Assembly (NCBI GenBank): GCA_963768705.1 | Contig: CAVYJE010000028.1 | Span: 90,571-154,570 of the forward strand | Length of the DNA stretch: 64,000 bases | Direction of reading: 5' to 3' | DNA from: an uncultured Chloroflexia bacterium | GTDB taxonomy: Bacteria > Chloroflexota > Dehalococcoidia > DSTF01 > WHTK01 | Shown here: one piece after another, positions 7,071 to 20,058 of the stretch | How positions within the stretch are numbered: position 1 is the stretch's first letter | How the letters are laid out: every line of letters begins with the position of its first letter | Position numbers and translations under genes: made by a program | Notes under the pieces: model-generated | Told to the model about the DNA's origin: nothing | Database searches by the model: none | The model's input: the letters and a program-made list of their open reading frames with translations, nothing else

Positions 7071-7843
<773 letters not shown>

Positions 7844-13648: not shown

Positions 13649-13736
13649 GGAGGGGTGGCAGAGCGGTTTAATGCGGCGGTCTTGAAAACCGCTGTGGGGC
13701 AACTCACCGGGGGTTCGAATCCCTCCCCCTCCGCCA
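13649..13736 (+). tRNA. tRNA-Ser (anticodon TGA)
   Basis: 88 nt. Acceptor stem GGAGGGG/CCCCTCC; anticodon loop CU-UGA-AA; long variable arm; T-loop GGTTCGAATCC; encoded CCA end. Confidence 0.85.
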
Positions 13737-13794
13737 TCACCCTTCTTGTCCGATTCTGCACCGCCCCCTGAAACCTTGCAGAAAGGCCCTGTTA

Positions 13795-13862
13795 GCGCAA
13801 CGTTAACAGACCTGAAGGCTGGCCTGACTCTTGTGTAGCGTGAGCTTGCGTTAACGTTGCAG
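13795..13862. repeat. pair of inverted 11-bp sites GCAACGTTAAC / GTTAACGTTGC about 40 bp apart, between the tRNA and the island
   Basis: gcGCAACGTTAACag at 13795-13809 and gcGTTAACGTTGCag at 13849-13862. A related AACGCGTTAACATTGCGG lies at 12022-12040 just upstream of the PEP-enzyme gene. Confidence 0.3.
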
Positions 13863-14054
13863 AATTGCTGCCAGTGTGTCCGAATGGCCCCCACGGTTGC
13901 TTGAAATTACCCCCGCCGGGTGTCTGGTCACGTGATGTCTTTCGTGATCCCTGGCAGCGCTTTACCTGAAAGGAGATCGTCTTGATTCCAGCTAGCTAGT
14001 GACTCCATTTGCCGCCATCAGGCGGGTTTTTCAAAAGCGAGGAGGGCTTCGAAA

Positions 14055-14708
14055 ATGAGTCGAAGCATTTTGTTAAGCATCATGTTCATCGCGGGTACGC
14101 TGGGCGTCATCGCCTTCAGTGCCGCCCAGTTCACGGACTTCGAGACCGATACGTCCGATCCCATTGACGCTGGAACTCTCAATTTGGAAATCGCCAACGT
14201 AACAACCTGCACTGTAGATGCCGACGGCCTTGAGGGTGATCCGGGCGAGGCTGACGGCGACACGCAGGCCACTTGTGACTTCAGTGTCCAGCACACAGGC
14301 TCGCTCAACAACGCGGACCTCTACCTCAAGATCGACGACGTCACGGCTTTCGCGTGTACGGACGCAGCCAACGGCGGCCGGGACGACGACTCTGACTATT
14401 GCGACGGTGGCGCCGATCTAACCTCGGACGAGTTCGATCTGATCAGCCTCGTAATCACGGCTGGTGGTGGCGAGGACTACACGCCGCTTACGCAGGATAC
14501 GTTGACTAACTACATCGACCAATGTGGCCTGATCGACAGCGATGTCGATAGCGGGGACACGGTTGAGGGAACCTATACGGTTGAGCTCTTTCAGGATCGC
14601 ACGACCAATGTGATGCAGGGTGACGCGATCAAGCTCGTCCTTAGCTTCGAGTTGGCCGAGGATCAAGCGACCACGGGCGCCGGTTTTGCTGACTGCGTCG
14701 AAGACTAG
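14055..14708 (+). CDS. TasA/CalY/camelysin-like secreted protein with SipW-cognate signal peptide
   Basis: ATG with GAGGAGGG RBS; N-terminal TM signal then AAQFTDFETDTSD..GTLNLEI (TasA: AAFND..GTLDLSA); C-terminal ..GDAIKLVLSFELAEDQ (TasA ..NSIKLQFSFEATQ); acidic; locally low GC. Confidence 0.7.
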   Translation: MSRSILLSIMFIAGTLGVIAFSAAQFTDFETDTSDPIDAGTLNLEIANVTTCTVDADGLEGDPGEADGDTQATCDFSVQHTGSLNNADLYLKIDDVTAFACTDAANGGRDDDSDYCDGGADLTSDEFDLISLVITAGGGEDYTPLTQDTLTNYIDQCGLIDSDVDSGDTVEGTYTVELFQDRTTNVMQGDAIKLVLSFELAEDQATTGAGFADCVED

Positions 14709-14724
14709 GGCTCGCTGTTGATGT

Positions 14725-15321
14725 TTGACTTCTGAGGCTAGCTTCGTGATTGCTGACGGCTATCGATTATTGAGTCCCCATTTGCGGGGACCAGGGTGGT
14801 GGTTGCCTCGCCTTGCGCGTGGCGGTATGGCGCTGGTCGCCCTCTTGCTGGGCTTTGCCGCGCTGTTTGCCCTGATCGGTCCGCAATTCGGTTACAGCTA
14901 TGCGGTGGTCAAGAGCGGCTCAATGGCGCCGGCCTACGGTGTAGGGGCCGTCATCGTGGTCGACGAGGTCAATCCGTCCTCGGTGCAGGTCGGAGACGTG
15001 GTCAGCTTCCGTCTCCCCGAGAGGCCGAGTGACGAGATCGTGACGCACCGGGTCGTCGAGGTGCTTAGCGAGGACGGAGCACTGCAATTTCGGACCAAGG
15101 GCGACGCGAACGAGGAGCCCGACCCTCGCCTCATCGAGGCTAGTCAGGTGAAGGGGCGCATCGTATTCGGTGTGCCCTGGATTGGACGTCTCGCGCCGAC
15201 GCTTCAAGCCAAGGGTCTGTTCTTCCTGGTTGTCCTCGCTTGTGGCGGACTGCTCATCGCTGGTGAGTTGGCCAACATCTTTCGGGAGCTACGTGGTCCG
15301 AGGGAGCGGCCTCTTGGGTAA
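14725..15321 (+). CDS. sipW: signal peptidase I, archaeal/ER (SipW) type
   Basis: ..AVVKSGSMAPAYGVGAVIVV.. (catalytic Ser), ..VTHRVVEV.. (His), KGDANEEPD, C-terminal TM anchor. The track start is a TTG; the GTG at 14746 or the ATG at 14824 may be the true start. Confidence 0.8.
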   Translation: MTSEASFVIADGYRLLSPHLRGPGWWLPRLARGGMALVALLLGFAALFALIGPQFGYSYAVVKSGSMAPAYGVGAVIVVDEVNPSSVQVGDVVSFRLPERPSDEIVTHRVVEVLSEDGALQFRTKGDANEEPDPRLIEASQVKGRIVFGVPWIGRLAPTLQAKGLFFLVVLACGGLLIAGELANIFRELRGPRERPLG

Positions 15322-15330
15322 CGGAGTGTG

Positions 15331-16428
15331 ATGAAGAAGACTGCGGTGCAAGGGCAAGGAGCGTGGCGGCGATTGGGCCGTCCGGTGATTCTTTGCGCCC
15401 TGGTGGCAAGTCTTCTCCTTTGGCTCGCGTCAGGACATGTGCCCTATACGAGCGGTCAATTTGCTGATTACGAAACCGATACCAGCGATGCGCTCTGGAT
15501 GAGTACCCATCCGGCCGACATCAAAATCGTCGTGAGTGCTGACGCCCCAGGCTTCATCGAGTTCACCAGCGACATTCCCGGATGCCCGTCCTCCTTCAGC
15601 TTTACTTTCGCAGAGGCAGGGTCGCAATCGTGGTTGTGCAACCCGGTCCCGGCAGGAACATACGAGGTCACTGAGACCACGCTTGGCTGGGACATCACAA
15701 TCAGCTGCATCGAGTCTGACACCGAGAACAGCGATGACGATAACCCCCCTTCAGCGACGATCGTCCTTGAGGAATACGAGAAGGTCATGTGTACCTTCAC
15801 GAACGAAATCGTCGACACCGGCAGCCTTGCCGTCGATCTCGACTACTCTGACGACTCCGTGATCGGGCTCGACGTAAACGTCGCATGTGATAGTGGTGCT
15901 TCGCCGGACACCAATGGCATGACCGCCTACGAAGGCACACCTGCTGAGTTCCAAATCAACGACCTGCCGCCCGGTGGTACATCCTGCGACGCGGAACTCG
16001 ACAGTCCGCCCGCAGACTATGCCGTGGACGACTCGGACTGCGCAGGTGTTTCACTAACGCCGGTTTTCCCGGATGCCGTTTGCACCATCGTCCTGACCAA
16101 GCTGGGTTCGATTACGTTCCTTCAAGACTCACCATCTGGCGAAGAATCGACCGACGTTACATTCGAGTTCTCGTCCAACCTTTCTGATTGTGAGCCGGGA
16201 CAGTTCCTGTTGGCGGAAGACGATGGCAGCGAGACCTGTAGTGGTCTTGTCGAGGACACGTACACCGTTACGCAGATACCGGGGGACTTGCCGTCTGGCT
16301 GGATTCTCTCCGACATCGACTGCAGTGCAGTGGATTCTGAGAACGATCTGGTTGCCGGAACTGTCACGATTGACCTGCAGCCTGGCGAGGACGTGACCTG
16401 CGTGTTCGTCAACGAGGTGCCTTCGTGA
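15331..16428 (+). CDS. secreted Cys-rich protein with SipW-cognate signal peptide and three tandem ~100-aa beta-sandwich (prealbumin/SpaA-like) repeats
   Basis: Signal peptide followed by SGQFADYETDTSD, the same motif as 14055. Three repeats each end in ..GTYxVTE..GW.I..I.C.. / ..G(E)(D)VTCxFxNE. Acidic. Starts at ATG 15331 (the track's 15328 is a GTG). Confidence 0.6.
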   Translation: MKKTAVQGQGAWRRLGRPVILCALVASLLLWLASGHVPYTSGQFADYETDTSDALWMSTHPADIKIVVSADAPGFIEFTSDIPGCPSSFSFTFAEAGSQSWLCNPVPAGTYEVTETTLGWDITISCIESDTENSDDDNPPSATIVLEEYEKVMCTFTNEIVDTGSLAVDLDYSDDSVIGLDVNVACDSGASPDTNGMTAYEGTPAEFQINDLPPGGTSCDAELDSPPADYAVDDSDCAGVSLTPVFPDAVCTIVLTKLGSITFLQDSPSGEESTDVTFEFSSNLSDCEPGQFLLAEDDGSETCSGLVEDTYTVTQIPGDLPSGWILSDIDCSAVDSENDLVAGTVTIDLQPGEDVTCVFVNEVPS

Positions 16429-18320
16429 GTCGCCTCGTCTCGCGCAACAATGTGCTTCGGCTGGTCCTGGTCCTCTTCGTGGCGTCGTTCATCACGGCCA
16501 TCTACGCGACTTCCTCCTCTCGTCTAGGTGGCCGGGTGCCCGTCGTCCTTGCGGAGGCGGGCGGCGTCGTGGACGTACAGATCGATGACGGCAGCGGTAG
16601 TCTCGTGTTCACGCCGGCCGAGTGTCAGACCCAGATCGCCTCGCTCTCGCAGTGCACGACAACGCTCGAGGTGGTAAACGCGGGCGGAACCGACAGCGCC
16701 GAGTTCGAGTACTCAATCGATGTCTGGGCTGATACGAACGGCGTCGACAACGGCGACATGGGCTACCACGACGACGATTTCAGTGCCTGCTACAACGTCA
16801 CGCTGGTCAAGGGTGGCACGCCCAACATGACCGCGACCAAGCCGCATGTTGGGCCGCTCTTCGGTGATTCGCTGCAGCTGGGCCAGTCGAAGGAGTGGAG
16901 CCTCGCGCTCGCCGTCAAGGGCGACAACAGCTGCCAGGGCGCGACCACAACCGTCATCGTCGCCGTGCTGGCGTCGGATGTCCCCGGCTTCTTCGATGAC
17001 ATCAAGCCGGTGCCGACGCTCGTGCCTTCGCCCAGTGTCGTGGCAGTAGCCGAGTCTCCAACGGTGACTGAAGAGACTCCAGGTCCGGCTTACGAAATCG
17101 AGGATGACGAACAGGCTCAGGCGCCAGTAGAGACCGTGACGGAGACCGCCACGCCAGAGCCGACATCGACCGCGACGCCGCGACCTGCCACCCCCACGCT
17201 GGTGCCCGCAACGGCGGTTGTGCCGGTTGCGACCGCGACGCCAAGCCCGACGCCTTCGCCGACGGCAGAGGTCAGCAAGAAGCCAGGCCGCGAAGATGGG
17301 CCGAACTTCCTGACCCAGGAGATCCCCAGTCCGAGCGCGATCTCCACCAACGTGAAGGTGGTTGCCACCAACTTCACGCTCTCGCTGCTTGCGCTGTGCG
17401 TGATCCTGGTGGCAACGACGGTATTCAACTCCACGCTGGAGGAGAACGCCATCGAAATCGGCGTCGTGATGAACCGCCTCACCGGCCCCACGACGAGAGT
17501 GGGCAAGGTCCTCGGCTGGATCGACCTGGACGACGAGGACGATGACAGGCCTGGCTGGCTGGCGTCTCTGCTGAAACCCCTGGGTATCGTGGCGATCACG
17601 GCCCTTATCTACACTGCTCTGGAGCCCGACTTCGGCTTCAATAATGAGACGCTGACCCTCACGGTGGCGCTGATGGCCGGCATCGCCATGAGTACCTTCC
17701 TGTACGAAGGCGGCCAGGTCTTCTGGTCGTCGAAGCGATATCGCACGCCGGCGGCCATGCGCGTCTACCCGATGGCGATCGTGATCGCGGTGGTTTCGGT
17801 GCTCATGACGAAGTTCGTGAGCCTGCACCCCGGCGTGATCTTTGGCTTCGTCACCGCCGCAACGATCTTCCCGCGAGGCGCCATGTCGCCCAAGGAGAAG
17901 GGGATGATCGTGCTGGTGCCCCTTGTCGGCCTGCTCGCGACCTCGATCATCGCCTTCCTGCTCATCGAACCGTTGCGCGCGTACTCGGTCGAACACCCCG
18001 GCGTGTGGAACGCCCTGCCGGAGACGGTCGCCATCGCCCTCTTCGTCGGTGGTGCCCAGAGCGCTCTGCTGATCCTGATCCCCGTGACGTTCAACGACGG
18101 TGAGAAGATCTGGGAGTGGAACAAGCTGGTGTGGTTCGCCATCGCCCTGCCGGCGAGCTTCCTGTTCTTCCACGTGATGATCAATAGCGGTGGCGACTAC
18201 GGTGACATCGTGGACAACGGCAAGGCACTGACGTTGCTGATTACCGCGTTTACCTTCCTGGGGGTCGCGGGCCTGACCTGGCTATACTTCCGCATACGCT
18301 TTGGACCCGGTGAAAACTGA
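16425..18320 (+). CDS. polytopic membrane protein: N-terminal TM + TasA-like ectodomain + Pro/Thr-rich linker + ~10-TM C-terminal domain
   Basis: GTG start overlapping the upstream stop (GTGA) with a GAGGTG RBS. Ectodomain ..CTTTLEVVNAGGTDSAEFEYSIDVW.. resembles the TasA beta-sandwich. PT-rich ATPEPTSTATPRPATPTLVPATAVVP region. Ten predicted TM helices of unknown family. Confidence 0.55.
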   Translation: MSRLVSRNNVLRLVLVLFVASFITAIYATSSSRLGGRVPVVLAEAGGVVDVQIDDGSGSLVFTPAECQTQIASLSQCTTTLEVVNAGGTDSAEFEYSIDVWADTNGVDNGDMGYHDDDFSACYNVTLVKGGTPNMTATKPHVGPLFGDSLQLGQSKEWSLALAVKGDNSCQGATTTVIVAVLASDVPGFFDDIKPVPTLVPSPSVVAVAESPTVTEETPGPAYEIEDDEQAQAPVETVTETATPEPTSTATPRPATPTLVPATAVVPVATATPSPTPSPTAEVSKKPGREDGPNFLTQEIPSPSAISTNVKVVATNFTLSLLALCVILVATTVFNSTLEENAIEIGVVMNRLTGPTTRVGKVLGWIDLDDEDDDRPGWLASLLKPLGIVAITALIYTALEPDFGFNNETLTLTVALMAGIAMSTFLYEGGQVFWSSKRYRTPAAMRVYPMAIVIAVVSVLMTKFVSLHPGVIFGFVTAATIFPRGAMSPKEKGMIVLVPLVGLLATSIIAFLLIEPLRAYSVEHPGVWNALPETVAIALFVGGAQSALLILIPVTFNDGEKIWEWNKLVWFAIALPASFLFFHVMINSGGDYGDIVDNGKALTLLITAFTFLGVAGLTWLYFRIRFGPGEN

Positions 18321-18330
18321 CCCTAACGAA

Positions 18331-18696
18331 ATGCCGCTGGACCGCCTGCGAAGGCTGTGTATGGCGCTGCCCGAAGTAACGGAGCGCCTCTCCCACAGTG
18401 AGCCGACCTGGTTTGTGCGGGACAAGAAGACCTTCGTCATGTTCGCGGACCATCATCATGACGACAGGCTGGCTTTCTGGTGTGCAGCGCCGGAGGGCGC
18501 CCAGACGTCACTAGTGGCGGCATACCCAGACCGATTCTTCCGGCCGCCCTACGTAGGCGTACGTGGATGGCTCGGCGTCTACCTCGATGTCCCCGTGGAC
18601 TGGGACGAGGTTGCCGTCATCGTGGAGGACGCTTATCGCGTGGTGGCGCCGAAGAAGCTCGTGGCGTTGTTGGGATCGCCTGGCACGGAAGGCTGA
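18331..18696 (+). CDS. MmcQ/YjbR-family protein
   Basis: MPLDRLRRLCMALPEVTERLSHSEPTWFVRDKKTFVMFADHHHDDRLAFWCAAPEG..; the internal ATG is chosen to avoid overlap with the upstream gene. Confidence 0.55.
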   Translation: MPLDRLRRLCMALPEVTERLSHSEPTWFVRDKKTFVMFADHHHDDRLAFWCAAPEGAQTSLVAAYPDRFFRPPYVGVRGWLGVYLDVPVDWDEVAVIVEDAYRVVAPKKLVALLGSPGTEG

Positions 18697-18749: not shown

Positions 18750-19190
18750 ATGCAAGAGCCCGGTTTCAGGTTCTACTCCTTCAGTTGGGGCACGCCCCAA
18801 GACCGCGGTCGCTTCGACCGCGAGCGCTGGCCGGCGCTGCTGGTGCGCTGGCTCATGCTGGCGTTTTCGGTGTGGGTCGCTGCGGAGGTCGTGGGCGGCA
18901 TCCATCTCGATGGCCTGGTGAGCATTCTCGCTGTCGCTGCCATCCTGGGCTTGCTCAACCTCTACCTGCGCCCTGTCCTGTTTGTGCTCTCATTGCCCTT
19001 CACGATCCTCACGCTGGGCTTCTTCGTGATCGTGATCAACGCGATCCTGCTGGGAATCACGGACTGGCTGGCCGACATCTTCGGTATCCACTTTGCCGTC
19101 GATAGCATCGGCGCGGCGCTGCTGGGCGCCCTCTTGATCAGCCTGGTGAACCTGATGCTGGCGGCCTTCCTGCGCCCAAGTAAGGTCTGA
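18750..19190 (+). CDS. phage-holin-4 (DUF360/YvlD) family membrane protein
   Basis: 4-TM; ..LNLYLRPVLFVLSLPFTILTLGFFVIVINAILLGITDWLA.. parallels YvlD (..LIRPLLLLLTLPITILTLGLFTFVINA..); GGAGG RBS. Confidence 0.7.
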   Translation: MQEPGFRFYSFSWGTPQDRGRFDRERWPALLVRWLMLAFSVWVAAEVVGGIHLDGLVSILAVAAILGLLNLYLRPVLFVLSLPFTILTLGFFVIVINAILLGITDWLADIFGIHFAVDSIGAALLGALLISLVNLMLAAFLRPSKV

Positions 19191-19353: not shown

Positions 19354-20058
19354 ATGCTATTGCAAGCGCTGCTCGGTGCCGAGGATTCATATGTAGTGAG
19401 AAGGCTTCATACTCGTCCTACGGCGGTCGCGGCCGGCATTGTCGTGCTGCTGTTTGGGATTGTGTGGACGCTGTCTGCCACGGACCTCACCTTCATAGGC
19501 TCCTTCATGGCAGCCATCGTTGTAGCCGCTGCGGTGGGTGCAGGGATTTACCTGTTCAAGTCGAGTACGGAGCCGGGCGAACATGGCAATCGCCTGCTGG
19601 AGCTCATGCAGCGCTCCAGCGATGCCCGACGTGGCATTCGCGACGATACGACCGGCCTGCTCAATCGCTGGTACCTGGAGCGCCGTCTTGACGAAGAGGC
19701 GGCACGCTGCGTGCGTTACGGGCACTCCATGGCGGTCATCGTCCTCAAGGCCGTCGCCCTCGATCTCGCACGATTCTCGCTCGATGGCTGGCAGCAAGAG
19801 TCGGCTGCAGCGGCGCAACGCTGTGCCCAGGTCATCCGGAACGTGGACCTCAGCGCTTCGCTGGCACCGTTCGAATTTGCGATGTGTTTGGTGCACTGCG
19901 ATCGCACCGGCGCAAACGCCGCGTTGGAACGCATCGTCACGGAGTTCCGGGACTACGACTGCAGCATCGGCATCGCCGTCTACCCCGAGGACGAGTGCGA
20001 GCCGCGAGCCCTGATTGAGCTCGCGCGTGTGCGCTCCCACGAGGTCGAAGCAGCTTAG
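19354..20058 (+). CDS. membrane protein with degenerate GGDEF domain (GGDEF replaced by APFEF)
   Basis: Two N-terminal TM helices; RDDTTGLLNRWYLERRLDEE..YGHSMAVIVLKAVALD (GGDEF-domain core) but the active-site motif reads LAPFEFAM. Confidence 0.55.
   Translation: MLLQALLGAEDSYVVRRLHTRPTAVAAGIVVLLFGIVWTLSATDLTFIGSFMAAIVVAAAVGAGIYLFKSSTEPGEHGNRLLELMQRSSDARRGIRDDTTGLLNRWYLERRLDEEAARCVRYGHSMAVIVLKAVALDLARFSLDGWQQESAAAAQRCAQVIRNVDLSASLAPFEFAMCLVHCDRTGANAALERIVTEFRDYDCSIGIAVYPEDECEPRALIELARVRSHEVEAA

Follow-up and report, generated by a model that had tools for sequence, protein, structure and literature searches.

Does the group of four genes directly after tRNA-Ser(TGA) in this Chloroflexota genome encode an extracellular fibre of the TasA type, and is it a recently acquired element or an old one? 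An initial reading made from the sequence alone (hereafter, the sequence-only reading) described a low-GC island encoding a TasA-like fibre module with its own signal peptidase. Here we evaluate that proposal, using as the window the whole 64-kb stretch of DNA analyzed.

Layout of the cassette

The tRNA gene is followed by four co-directional genes on the + strand (g1 to g4) that occupy 4.6 kb (Table 1). The tight spacing originally described agrees with the ARAGORN prediction and with the open reading frame coordinates: the intergenic gaps are 16 nt (g1/g2) and 6 nt (g2/g3), and g4 starts on a GTGA that overlaps g3 by 4 nt. The motifs quoted for g1, g2, and g3 were all present in the translations. 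The accessory four-gene cassette spans 13737 to about 18323, and the true start of the YjbR-family gene is likely near 18331. The leader upstream of g1 (GC 0.53-0.58) contains a perfect 11-nt inverted repeat (GCAACGTTAAC and GTTAACGTTGC) and a GAGGAGG ribosome-binding site, both partly kept upstream of the g1 orthologue in L002; these are putative regulatory elements. Rfam gave no match here besides the tRNA itself, and no sigma-70 consensus promoter was found in the leader.

Table 1. Features of the cassette and its boundaries (window coordinates)
Feature	Positions	Strand	Size	Evidence or composition	Assignment
tRNA-Ser(TGA)	13649-13736	+		ARAGORN; Rfam RF00005, 59 bits	Left cassette boundary, outside its machinery
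Leader upstream of g1	13737-14054	+	318 nt	Low GC	
Inverted repeat, left arm	13797-13807				
Inverted repeat, right arm	13850-13860				
g1	14055-14708	+	217 aa		Predicted major fibre subunit, divergent TasA/camelysin superfamily member
g1 mature N-terminus	14127-14159			QFTDFETDTSD	Predicted; donor-strand-like
g2	14725-15321	+	198 aa		Dedicated ER/archaeal-type (SipW-like) signal peptidase I
g3	15328-16428	+	366 aa		Predicted tip, nucleator, or adhesin protein
g3 motif	15457-15489			QFADYETDTSD	
g4	16425-18320	+	631 aa		Predicted membrane anchor or fibre base
g4 ectodomain	16512-17009				Beta-sandwich
g4 linker	17010-17309			Pro/Thr/Val/Ala-rich	
g4 membrane domain	17310-18320				Polytopic cola_mem domain
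YjbR-family gene	18301-18696	+		Pfam YjbR PF04237, 53.4 bits	Right boundary, outside cassette

Distribution and origin

If the cassette were part of the core genome, the same gene content would be expected in all close relatives. Instead, the site is empty in three of them (L070, L071, and L072), in which the genes for a PEP-utiliser, tRNA-Ser, and YjbR are adjacent. In 3/3 relatives that retain the tRNA, YjbR lies 7 to about 510 nt past it (7 nt in L071). Other Chloroflexota also carry the four-gene set, with the genes ordered as here or permuted, consistent with the core of the sequence-only reading. In L002, the contig starts within the same tRNA 3′ end and ends in the YjbR N-terminus right after g4; the gene order is that of the window, and both junctions are alike at only 50-64% protein identity, so the arrangement is old. 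The four components are also adjacent in L004 (permuted order, in a third genomic context) and in L005 and L074, where the peptidase and g3 are fused and the cassette interrupts the smc-ftsY gene pair. All four of these genomes have g3 orthologues. A further locus (L023) has three proteins with SipW-type signals, one of which passes Pfam PF12389, adjoining a peptidase and a protein of the cola_mem family (see below). Given the three empty sites and the cassettes found elsewhere between smc and ftsY, we conclude that the cassette is accessory, but old.

The description as a low-GC island proved overstated. The window averages 0.652 GC and the flanks 0.65-0.70; in 400-nt windows, GC drops to 0.53-0.59 over the leader, g1 (0.58 overall), and g3 (0.57) only, whereas g2 and g4 are at 0.62 and 0.63. 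The depression is shared by g1 and g3 orthologues in other genomes (GC1 0.53-0.60). Being both partial and common to these orthologues, the low GC provides no evidence of recent transfer. The sequence-only reading found neither an integrase nor an att duplication, and this stands: a repeat search of the 64-kb window found no duplicate of the tRNA-Ser 3′ end, and no integrase or transposase Pfam domains were detected in the neighboring genes.

It is possible, though doubtful, that the block is ancestral at the tRNA-Ser/YjbR site and was deleted in the L070, L071, and L072 lineages, its low GC simply reflecting the amino acid composition of acidic, Thr/Ser-rich secreted proteins. The conserved L002 junctions, the lack of an integrase or att repeat, the GC depression of the orthologues, and the GC3 of g4 (0.83, host-like) would all fit this history. 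It is less easily reconciled with the short tRNA-to-YjbR distances in all three tRNA-retaining relatives, the related cassettes in the smc-ftsY and third contexts, and the GC3 of g1-g3 (0.67-0.72, below the 0.84-0.85 of the flanks). In addition, L072 has a second copy, 48 nt long, of the 3′ half of tRNA-Ser, which shows that integration events do occur at this tRNA.

The component proteins

Judged by its conserved sequence features, g2 is a signal peptidase I of the ER/archaeal type, as originally proposed. With TIGR02228 it reaches 89 bits (cut-off 51.85), and with the Bacillus SipW equivalog NF046067 81 bits, below that model's cut-off of 190. It matches human SEC11C (7p2q, E 4e-9) and SEC11A (7p2p, E 1.8e-8) in alignments that span the Ser, His, and Asp motifs (SGSM-P, HRV, and KGD-N), which in g2 are SGSMAP (aa 64-69), THRV (aa 107-110), and KGDAN (aa 125-129). 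Transmembrane helices lie at both ends (aa 33-51 and 165-183).

Mature g1 is acidic (45 Asp+Glu in 193 aa, with six Cys) and follows a predicted signal peptide of about aa 1-24. The protein contains AAQFTDFETDTSD (aa 23-35), GTLNLEI (within AGTLNLEI, aa 39-46), and IKLVLSFELAEDQ, and has a C-terminal N-x-x-QGD-x-I strand (aa 185-204). Because g1 itself has no Pfam or NCBIfam match at E <= 1, its family assignment is transitive. P0032, which is 43% identical to g1, passes Pfam PF12389 (TasA/camelysin; 28.8 bits, cut-off 22.5), as does P0033. A profile built from three g1 orthologues recruited 33 relatives of about 200 aa from 1.84 billion representative proteins, and among the 27 family members that were aligned, 20 hit PF12389 with E <= 0.1 (best E 5.7e-16). 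Against structures, the family profile matches TasA (5of1, E 2.1e-6), the TasA fibre (8aur, E 2.6e-6), and AbpX (9sj2, E 0.016). In the TasA alignment, FsDtE...AGtlDL pairs with the donor strand and N-QGD-I-I with NKYQGNSIKLQF. The SipW-type signal model TIGR04088 (cut-off 19) is passed by the g1-like protein of L004 (25.2 bits); g1 orthologues score 13.8-15.2 bits. Overall, the TasA likeness first noticed by eye is supported, and g1 can be placed by transitive homology in the TasA/camelysin superfamily.

In g3, a signal anchor is followed by QFADYETDTSD (within SGQFADYETDTSD, aa 42-54) and then by Cys-rich, prealbumin-like (SpaA-type) domains. The mature protein contains 12 Cys and 64 Asp+Glu, and two stretches match Pfam SpaA_4 PF24514 (51.8 bits, cut-off 27.3). 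Its predicted mature N-terminus is identical to that of g1 at 9 of 11 residues, and the two motifs co-vary by genome (g1/g3: ETDTSD/ETDTSD in the window, ETTTSN/ETTTSN in L002, ENITSN/DSTTSN in L005). Among ORFs of 60 aa or more across the 64-kb window, no other has a QF[TA]D-type motif behind a hydrophobic N-terminal segment. The sequence-only reading was right that this motif is near-identical and follows an N-terminal signal, but treated it as a SipW cleavage or recognition region. It follows the predicted cleavage site, within the mature protein, and aligns there with residues 28-38 of TasA, which constitute the donor strand (PMC9674648); it is thus more than a tag. By the same alignment, g3 would resemble a tip protein or TapA of Bacillus. 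The TapA N-terminus, similar to the donor strand of TasA, is predicted to complement that protein (PMC9674648); g3 likewise carries a g1-type strand. Its role and polarity are predicted.

The beta-sandwich ectodomain, Pro/Thr linker, and polytopic domain described for g4 are all present. An N-terminal transmembrane helix (aa 7-29) precedes a beta-rich region (aa 40-184), the linker (about aa 195-295), and about nine hydrophobic segments (aa 312-620), close to the ~10 initially counted. The membrane domain, whose family the sequence-only reading did not recognize, is a member of NCBIfam NF041501 ("cola_mem"; 174.5 bits, cut-off 150), with conserved PGxxFGF (aa 469-475) and IPxxFxDG (aa 552-559) motifs and conserved residues that include N335, E340, and N341. 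By fold, the anchor domain matches a site-2 protease best.

The TasA likeness of the g4 ectodomain is no more than suggestive. An hhalign comparison with the g1 family, collinear over 160 columns, gave 61% probability; confident columns are confined to the C-terminal strands, and the donor-strand segment has no equivalent in g4. The ectodomain keeps the AG-x-h-D-h, V-x-N-x-G, and N-x-CQG signatures. Pairwise BLAST against g1 gave E 0.43, and the best Foldseek match was FimA (E 0.026). Three loci (L016, L020, and L028) each have a cola_mem ectodomain paralogous to the adjoining small secreted proteins (E 1.7e-4 to 4e-6, database of 12 sequences). We found 62 cola_mem loci, nearly all in Chloroflexota, with variable ectodomains (some of them the unrelated DUF11, CARDB, and DUF7507) and Pro/Thr linkers. 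About 50 of the 62 lack both a peptidase gene and a TasA-like gene within 10 kb, which marks the membrane domain as a generic anchor rather than a fibre-specific part; cola_mem is a Chloroflexota surface-anchor family.

A proposed cell-anchored fibre

We propose, with a probability of about 0.68, that the cassette builds a cell-anchored extracellular TasA-type fibre by donor-strand exchange. The peptidase g2 would remove the unusual signal peptides that g1 and g3 carry, cutting directly ahead of QF (after SAA in g1 and TSG in g3), and the freed N-terminal strand of each g1 subunit would enter the beta-sandwich of the next, leading to a polymer. With the same strand, but SpaA-type domains replacing the TasA-like body, g3 would donate its strand to a g1 subunit and may thus act as a nucleator or cap at one fibre end, the role proposed for TapA, while presenting adhesin-like domains. 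The g4 ectodomain, having no donor-strand counterpart, could accept the terminal g1 strand, and its wall-spanning linker and cola_mem domain would tie the fibre to the cell. The predicted function would be in biofilm formation or adhesion.

It is unlikely, in our view, that the cassette instead serves surface display without polymerization, g1 and g3 being ordinary secreted or wall-associated proteins (e.g., adhesins) that share a specialized signal peptide and peptidase, and g4 a generic surface protein, unrelated to them and co-transcribed by chance. SpaA-type domains are indeed typical of adhesins, and cola_mem proteins with DUF11, CARDB, or DUF7507 ectodomains mostly have no peptidase or TasA-like neighbor. 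However, the identity of g1 and g3 on the mature side, co-varying within genomes, is expected of a strand that fits a groove, not of a discarded signal, and the linkage of the four genes, g4 among them, persists even where the locus is rearranged. Furthermore, the structurally solved members of the superfamily of g1 considered here (TasA, ABP pilin, Tafi pilin, AbpX, and cannulae) assemble by strand donation (PMC9674648, PMC9245690, PMC12337348). We give little credence to a second alternative, in which the cola_mem domain of g4 is a membrane machine derived from a site-2 protease that actively assembles, processes, or releases the fibre or its own ectodomain. That g1 is a secreted camelysin-like metalloprotease (Pfam name Peptidase_M73) rather than a structural subunit is highly improbable, as H80 is the only His of the protein and an HExxH motif is absent, even though PF12389, "Camelysin metallo-endopeptidase", is the Pfam family nearest to it.

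Comparison with known systems

The fibre model is not without precedent, and the gene layout is less unusual than the sequence-only reading held it to be. In archaea, Tafi and AbpX loci already bring together a subunit, a signal peptidase I, a tip protein, and a membrane anchor (PMC12337348; bioRxiv 10.64898/2026.01.04.697558), the four component types also predicted for the Chloroflexota cassette. Most likely, the cassette represents a version, specific to its lineage, of a biofilm-matrix system previously described in Bacillus and archaea.

A four-gene cassette next to tRNA-Ser

The cassette lies 3' of the only tRNA gene in the window, tRNA-Ser(TGA), and its four genes have the predicted roles of subunit (g1), signal peptidase (g2), tip-like protein (g3), and membrane anchor (g4). 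ARAGORN and ORF calling bear out the tight, co-directional arrangement that had been described from the sequence alone, and every peptide motif cited in that sequence-only reading was found in the predicted proteins. The spacing is 16 nt between g1 and g2 and 6 nt between g2 and g3, and g3 and g4 share a four-base overlap (GTGA).

Coordinates of the cassette genes and nearby features in the window
Feature	Position	Strand	Detail
tRNA-Ser(tga)	13649-13736	+	ARAGORN; sole tRNA in window
Inverted repeat, first arm	13797-13807		GCAACGTTAAC
Inverted repeat, second arm	13850-13860		GTTAACGTTGC
g1, subunit (predicted)	14055-14708	+	217 aa
g2, signal peptidase	14725-15321	+	198 aa
g3, tip-like protein (predicted)	15328-16428	+	366 aa
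g4, membrane anchor (predicted)	16425-18320	+	631 aa
Phage_holin_4_2 protein	18750-19190		four TM segments; Pfam, 90.7 bits
GGDEF-like ORF	19354-20058		partial match

The block had also been described as an island of low GC content. This holds for the 318-nt leader, g1, and g3 (0.53-0.59 in sliding windows) but not for g2 (0.62) and g4 (0.63), which lie near the window mean of 0.652. Low GC cannot be taken as proof of recent transfer, because the g1 and g3 orthologues of other genomes show the same depression and the GC3 of g4 is host-like. The dip is owed partly to the composition of first codon positions.

The leader upstream of g1 contains a perfect 11-nt inverted repeat, which is partially conserved upstream of the g1 orthologue in L002 (a contig from another genome) and may be an operator. 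A scan of the leader for sigma-70 promoters returned zero sites, and an Rfam search for a riboswitch or other known RNA matched only the tRNA. A Logan contig (L001; run ERR11594398) corresponds to window positions 13708-16632 with 4 mismatches in 2925 nt; given such near-identity in a different sequencing run, the same strain-level cassette was therefore sampled independently.

Two genes downstream of the cassette can be mentioned here. Just past the YjbR gene is a small Phage_holin_4_2 protein, probably a housekeeping membrane protein because it has neither a PHROG match nor a phage context. About 1 kb downstream of the cassette is an ORF with N-terminal hydrophobic segments and a partial match to GGDEF (diguanylate cyclase).

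The signal peptidase and a predicted subunit of the TasA superfamily

The assignment of g2 as an archaeal/ER-type signal peptidase I is sound. The protein scores 89 bits on TIGR02228 (cut-off 51.85) over aa 43-156, has one transmembrane segment at each end, and contains the Ser, His, and Asp motifs found in SEC11 and SipW (SGSMAP, aa 64-69; THRV, aa 107-110; KGDAN, aa 125-129). It aligns with human SEC11C (7p2q, E 4e-9) and SEC11A (7p2p, E 1.8e-8) through SGSM-P, HRV, and KGD-N. On the equivalog model of Bacillus SipW (NF046067) it reaches 81.3 bits, short of the cut-off of 190. Judged by these profile scores, g2 is SipW-like in type, yet not an orthologue of Bacillus SipW.

The predicted subunit is rare: a word-indexed search of 5.8 billion sequences yielded three proteins. 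A Pfam scan of g1 gave nothing at E <= 1, so that the gathering score of PF12389 (TasA/camelysin, Peptidase_M73) was not reached directly, and NCBIfam likewise gave no match. When a profile of three g1 orthologues was searched against 1.84 billion representative proteins, 33 matches were obtained, mostly of ~200 aa and aligned over most of their length. The nearest relative outside the orthologue group (P0032; 43% identical, found with the profile of g1 orthologues at E 5.4e-38) reaches 28.8 bits on PF12389 (cut-off 22.5), covering profile positions 17-185 of 196, and three further relatives score 25.0 (P0033), 51.8 (P0052), and 59.4 bits (P0056). An alignment of 27 family members, 20 of which match PF12389 at E <= 0.1, has conserved columns at the N terminus (A-x-F-[ST]-D-x-E ... 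AG-T-L-D-L) and at the C terminus (N-x-x-QGD-x-I). The profile of these 27 sequences matches TasA (5OF1) and the TasA fibre (8AUR) at E ~2e-6, and weakly matches AbpX (9sj2, E 0.016). A PDB sequence search with six close g1 orthologues found nothing; TasA was reached only by the broader profile. Thus, the suspected TasA-likeness of g1 is supported by way of its relatives, and from homology to bona fide members we consider the protein a divergent member of the TasA superfamily. Its strong acidity would fit an assembly that depends on calcium. With a single His and no HExxH, g1 is unlikely to act as a camelysin-like protease.

Neither g1 nor g3 matches TIGR04088, the model of SipW-dependent-type signal peptides (cut-off 19 bits). 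The g1 orthologues in L002 and L005 (contigs from two other genomes) also fall below the cut-off, with 15.2 and 13.8 bits, respectively; a more distant homologue of 242 aa in contig L004 passes it with 25.2 bits.

A motif shared by the subunit and the tip-like protein

The g3 protein is Cys-rich and very acidic, and matches Pfam SpaA_4, which has a prealbumin-like fold (51.8 bits). After their hydrophobic segments, g1 and g3 continue with closely similar sequences, SAA-QFTDFETDTSD and TSG-QFADYETDTSD, and the A-x-F-[ST]-D-x-E core is visible in both. No other ORF of 60 aa or more in the window carries a motif of this type. Its presence in both proteins had been recognized in the sequence-only reading and attributed to recognition by the peptidase. 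Recognition is probably not the whole of it, however: in the profile-to-TasA alignment the shared segment corresponds to TasA residues 28-38, which constitute the donor strand of the TasA fibre (PMC9674648). Furthermore, the motif co-varies between g1 and g3 within each of the three genomes compared, reading ETDTSD in both proteins of the window, ETTTSN in both of L002, and ENITSN (g1) and DSTTSN (g3) in L005. In Bacillus, the N terminus of TapA resembles the TasA donor strand, and it has been predicted to complement TasA (PMC9674648). Because of the alignment with the donor strand, the similar TapA N terminus, and the within-genome co-variation, we read the motif as a putative mature donor strand, beyond a peptidase recognition tag, and g3 as a probable analogue of TapA or of a tip protein.

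The anchor protein and the cola_mem family

The membrane domain of g4 had been regarded as belonging to no recognized family. In fact, the C-terminal 320 residues belong to a named one, NCBIfam NF041501 (“cola_mem,” FGLLP motif-containing membrane protein), with 174.5 bits (cut-off 150). The segment HPGVIFGFV (aa 468-476) contains the PG-x-x-FGF (FGLLP-type) motif, whose residues P469, G470, G474, and F475 are invariant across 60 sequences. A full-text literature search for “FGLLP” returned nothing relevant, and we found no paper on the family.

An AF2 model of g4 (pLDDT 68) comprises a transmembrane helix, a beta-sandwich of nine strands (aa 40-184, pLDDT 70-87), a disordered Pro/Thr linker, and a helical membrane domain (pLDDT 70-95). 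The overlapping GTGA start, the beta-sandwich, and the linker are as originally described, but the proposed similarity of the ectodomain to TasA is no more than plausible. Comparison of the ectodomain with the g1 family by hhalign gives a probability of 61% (E 8e-5), with confident columns at the C-terminal strands, and in a greedy alignment the two are collinear over 160 columns. AGGVVDVQI of g4 falls opposite AGTLDL of the g1 family, V-x-N-x-G opposite N-x-GS, and N-x-CQG opposite N-x-x-QGD; the donor-strand segment of the g1 family has no residues opposite it in g4. Foldseek found no significant match for the model in the PDB. PDB sequence searches gave nothing for a profile of the ectodomain and only low-complexity matches to the Pro/Thr linker for a profile of the full g4 family. 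Weighed together, the hhalign probability, the collinear alignment, and the null Foldseek result make it plausible, but no more than that, that the ectodomain is a TasA-like acceptor lacking a donor strand of its own.

A search of GTDB species representatives recovered relatives of the cola_mem domain at 62 loci, nearly all of them in Chloroflexota: Dehalococcoidia, MAGs labelled “Chloroflexia,” Limnocylindrales, and Anaerolineae, with a few in Acidimicrobiia. These relatives also assign the window to Chloroflexota; the representatives do not include its own genome, the best match being 59%. The typical member begins with a signal sequence, followed by a variable beta-rich ectodomain (DUF11, CARDB, DUF7507, or others), a Pro/Thr linker, and the polytopic membrane domain. 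Most lack a peptidase or TasA neighbour, and a SipW-type peptidase is nearby in only a minority of loci. Unlike most NF041501 members, g4 is among the minority embedded in a predicted fibre locus. A peptidase is also present in L023, in which three SipW-signal proteins (one passing PF12389 with 32.4 bits) are followed by a peptidase and then a cola_mem protein. At three peptidase-linked loci (L020:9248-13867, L028:9512-15829, and L016:7290-11104), the cola_mem ectodomain is paralogous to adjacent small secreted proteins, which are 120-170 aa long and have no Pfam match; these loci may represent further undescribed fibre families with the same anchoring logic.

Three near-invariant residues of the cola_mem domain, P553, D558, and G559, recall the LDG motif of site-2 proteases (S2P). 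Membership in that family (M50) is not supported. The cola_mem alignment contains neither HExxH nor any conserved His, an hhalign comparison with RseP gives a probability of 1.6%, a Pfam scan of 24 cola_mem proteins found neither M50 nor another enzyme family, and the domain has ~9 transmembrane segments versus 4-6 in the S2P core (mjS2P 3B4R, RseP). We regard derivation of the anchor from an S2P-like fold as a possibility of low probability.

Recurrence and insertion sites

The cassette recurs in other genomes. In L002 the gene order is that of the window and the proteins are 50-64% identical to their counterparts; both junctions are shared, because this contig starts inside the same tRNA 3' end and stops in the N terminus of YjbR. 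In L004 the order is anchor, subunit, peptidase, SpaA_4 protein. Related cassettes in L005 (4107-8264) and L074 (9781-13937) separate smc from ftsY; in L074, rnc is found upstream, and no mobility gene is visible. They interrupt rnc-smc-ftsY, a cluster widely conserved in bacteria. In these two genomes the SipW-type peptidase and the g3-like protein are encoded together in one reading frame (372 or 381 aa; L005:5129-6247 and L074:10763-11908), whose g3-like part retains its own hydrophobic segment and SAQFTD motif. Occurrence in two genomes argues that the fusion is real. It would join a peptidase to the substrate predicted for it, and its topology is compatible with self-release.

A metagenome scan with the protein encoded upstream of tRNA-Ser (PEP-utiliser) recovered five syntenic relatives. 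As a synteny check on relatives had been proposed, it is useful that the site is empty in L070, L071, and L072: the upstream genes, the PEP-utiliser, tRNA-Ser(tga), and YjbR are kept adjacent, the cassette is absent, and the tRNA-to-YjbR gap is 7 nt, about 229 nt, and about 510 nt, respectively. L072 also has, 460 nt downstream of its tRNA-Ser(tga) (7233-7322), a second copy of the tRNA 3' half (48 nt, 7782-7829), which shares 98% identity with the corresponding part of the window tRNA. Between tRNA and copy lies one small ORF, immediately before YjbR. The arrangement resembles an att-type scar, which suggests that this tRNA-Ser serves as an integration hotspot in the lineage.

In the window itself, the absence of an integrase and of an att duplication, already remarked upon, was upheld. 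Repeat searches (including blastn-short) found no direct repeat of the tRNA 3' end within the window, and the neighbouring genes have no Pfam integrase or transposase domain and no PHROG match. An empty site in relatives is expected of a tRNA-targeting integrative island, but the integrase and distal tRNA repeat of such an island were not found here. Origin from a phage, plasmid, or mobile element is rejected; beyond the blank PHROG search, no similar plasmid DNA was found and a phage tblastn with g1 found nothing. We therefore take the four genes to be a genuine accessory cassette, located at different conserved intergenic sites in different lineages and old at the tRNA-Ser site.

A proposed model for fibre assembly

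Overall, the observations of the sequence-only reading are confirmed and its interpretation is supported with corrections. The four genes constitute a parts list and their linkage is conserved; the chemistry and polarity of assembly that we infer from them would be as follows. The peptidase g2 would cleave g1 and g3 directly before QF, and g1 would then polymerise through donation of its N-terminal strand. One end of the fibre would receive this type of strand from g3, which would display its prealbumin-type domains. At the opposite end, g4 would accept a strand and tether the fibre via its linker and cola_mem domain.

A more ambitious joint reading makes the cola_mem domain, almost restricted to Chloroflexota, more than a passive anchor. 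It would be an S2P-derived polytopic module without the HExxH zinc site, serving in fibre loci as a membrane platform for strand exchange of TasA-type subunits onto the cis-fused acceptor (a monoderm inner-membrane counterpart of an usher/anchor), and the four-gene unit would move as a cargo-only cassette into the tRNA-Ser/yjbR and smc/ftsY sites. We consider this unlikely, and prefer the tethered fibre with g4 as its anchor.

TasA-type donor-strand fibres are an emerging matrix scaffold common to bacteria and archaea, and their attachment to the cell is still poorly understood, Bacillus included. The locus and its Chloroflexota relatives provide a compact, linked parts list (predicted subunit, peptidase, strand-mimicking tip protein, and cis-anchored acceptor) that makes a polar assembly model directly testable. 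They also provide the first functional context for NF041501, an uncharacterised, phylum-wide family of surface-protein anchors. Beyond these two points, the locus extends a known system in a way that was to be expected, since Pfam-level TasA homologues have already been reported in Chloroflexota (PMC9245690).

Comparison with known systems

As in tapA-sipW-tasA of Bacillus subtilis, a dedicated ER/archaeal-type signal peptidase is encoded beside its substrates, the subunit is of the TasA/camelysin superfamily (F-x-D...AGT-L-D-L N terminus, N-x-x-QG C-terminal strand), and the N terminus of an accessory protein (TapA there, g3 here) mimics the donor strand. However, the host is a member of the Chloroflexota, the gene order is subunit, peptidase, accessory protein, anchor, and the Bacillus operon has no fourth gene for a polytopic membrane anchor. 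The parts also differ: g1 is too divergent to match PF12389 or TIGR04088 directly, g2 falls short of the SipW equivalog cut-off (81 vs. 190 bits), and g3 consists of SpaA-type prealbumin domains rather than a TapA-like fold.

The layout had been judged unusual, and it is indeed not that of Bacillus in order or gene number, but loci combining like parts are known: those of the Tafi and AbpX types already join a TasA-superfamily subunit, signal peptidase I, tip or minor subunits, and anchors (PMC12337348; bioRxiv 10.64898/2026.01.04.697558). The haloarchaeal Tafi locus, with TafA/TafE pilins, TafC tip, TafD signal peptidase, and TafF anchor, resembles the cassette by parts list (TasA-superfamily pilin, signal peptidase I, tip protein, and membrane anchor; PMC12337348). 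TafF has a jelly-roll(-like) ectodomain and 1-3 C-terminal transmembrane helices (PMC12337348), whereas in g4 a long Pro/Thr linker leads into a cola_mem domain of ~330 aa with ~9 transmembrane segments. DUF5305 (TafG), the transcription regulator TafB, and a Tat signal have no counterpart noted in the window.

AbpX-type loci are known from Pyrodictium abyssi and, as homologues, from bacteria including Chloroflexota, and there too a TasA-superfamily subunit adjoins a TIGR02228 signal peptidase (bioRxiv 10.64898/2026.01.04.697558). The bacterial loci often add anchors and c-di-GMP enzymes, and the window has its GGDEF-like ORF downstream; the AbpX-associated peptidases are described as having ten transmembrane helices versus two in g2, and the anchors described are SLH or LPXTG proteins, not cola_mem (bioRxiv 10.64898/2026.01.04.697558). 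By E-value, g1 is nearer to TasA than to AbpX (~2e-6 vs. 0.016). The cassette thus differs from the known systems in its divergent subunit clade, its SpaA-type predicted donor-strand mimic, and a cola_mem anchor fused to a putative acceptor domain.
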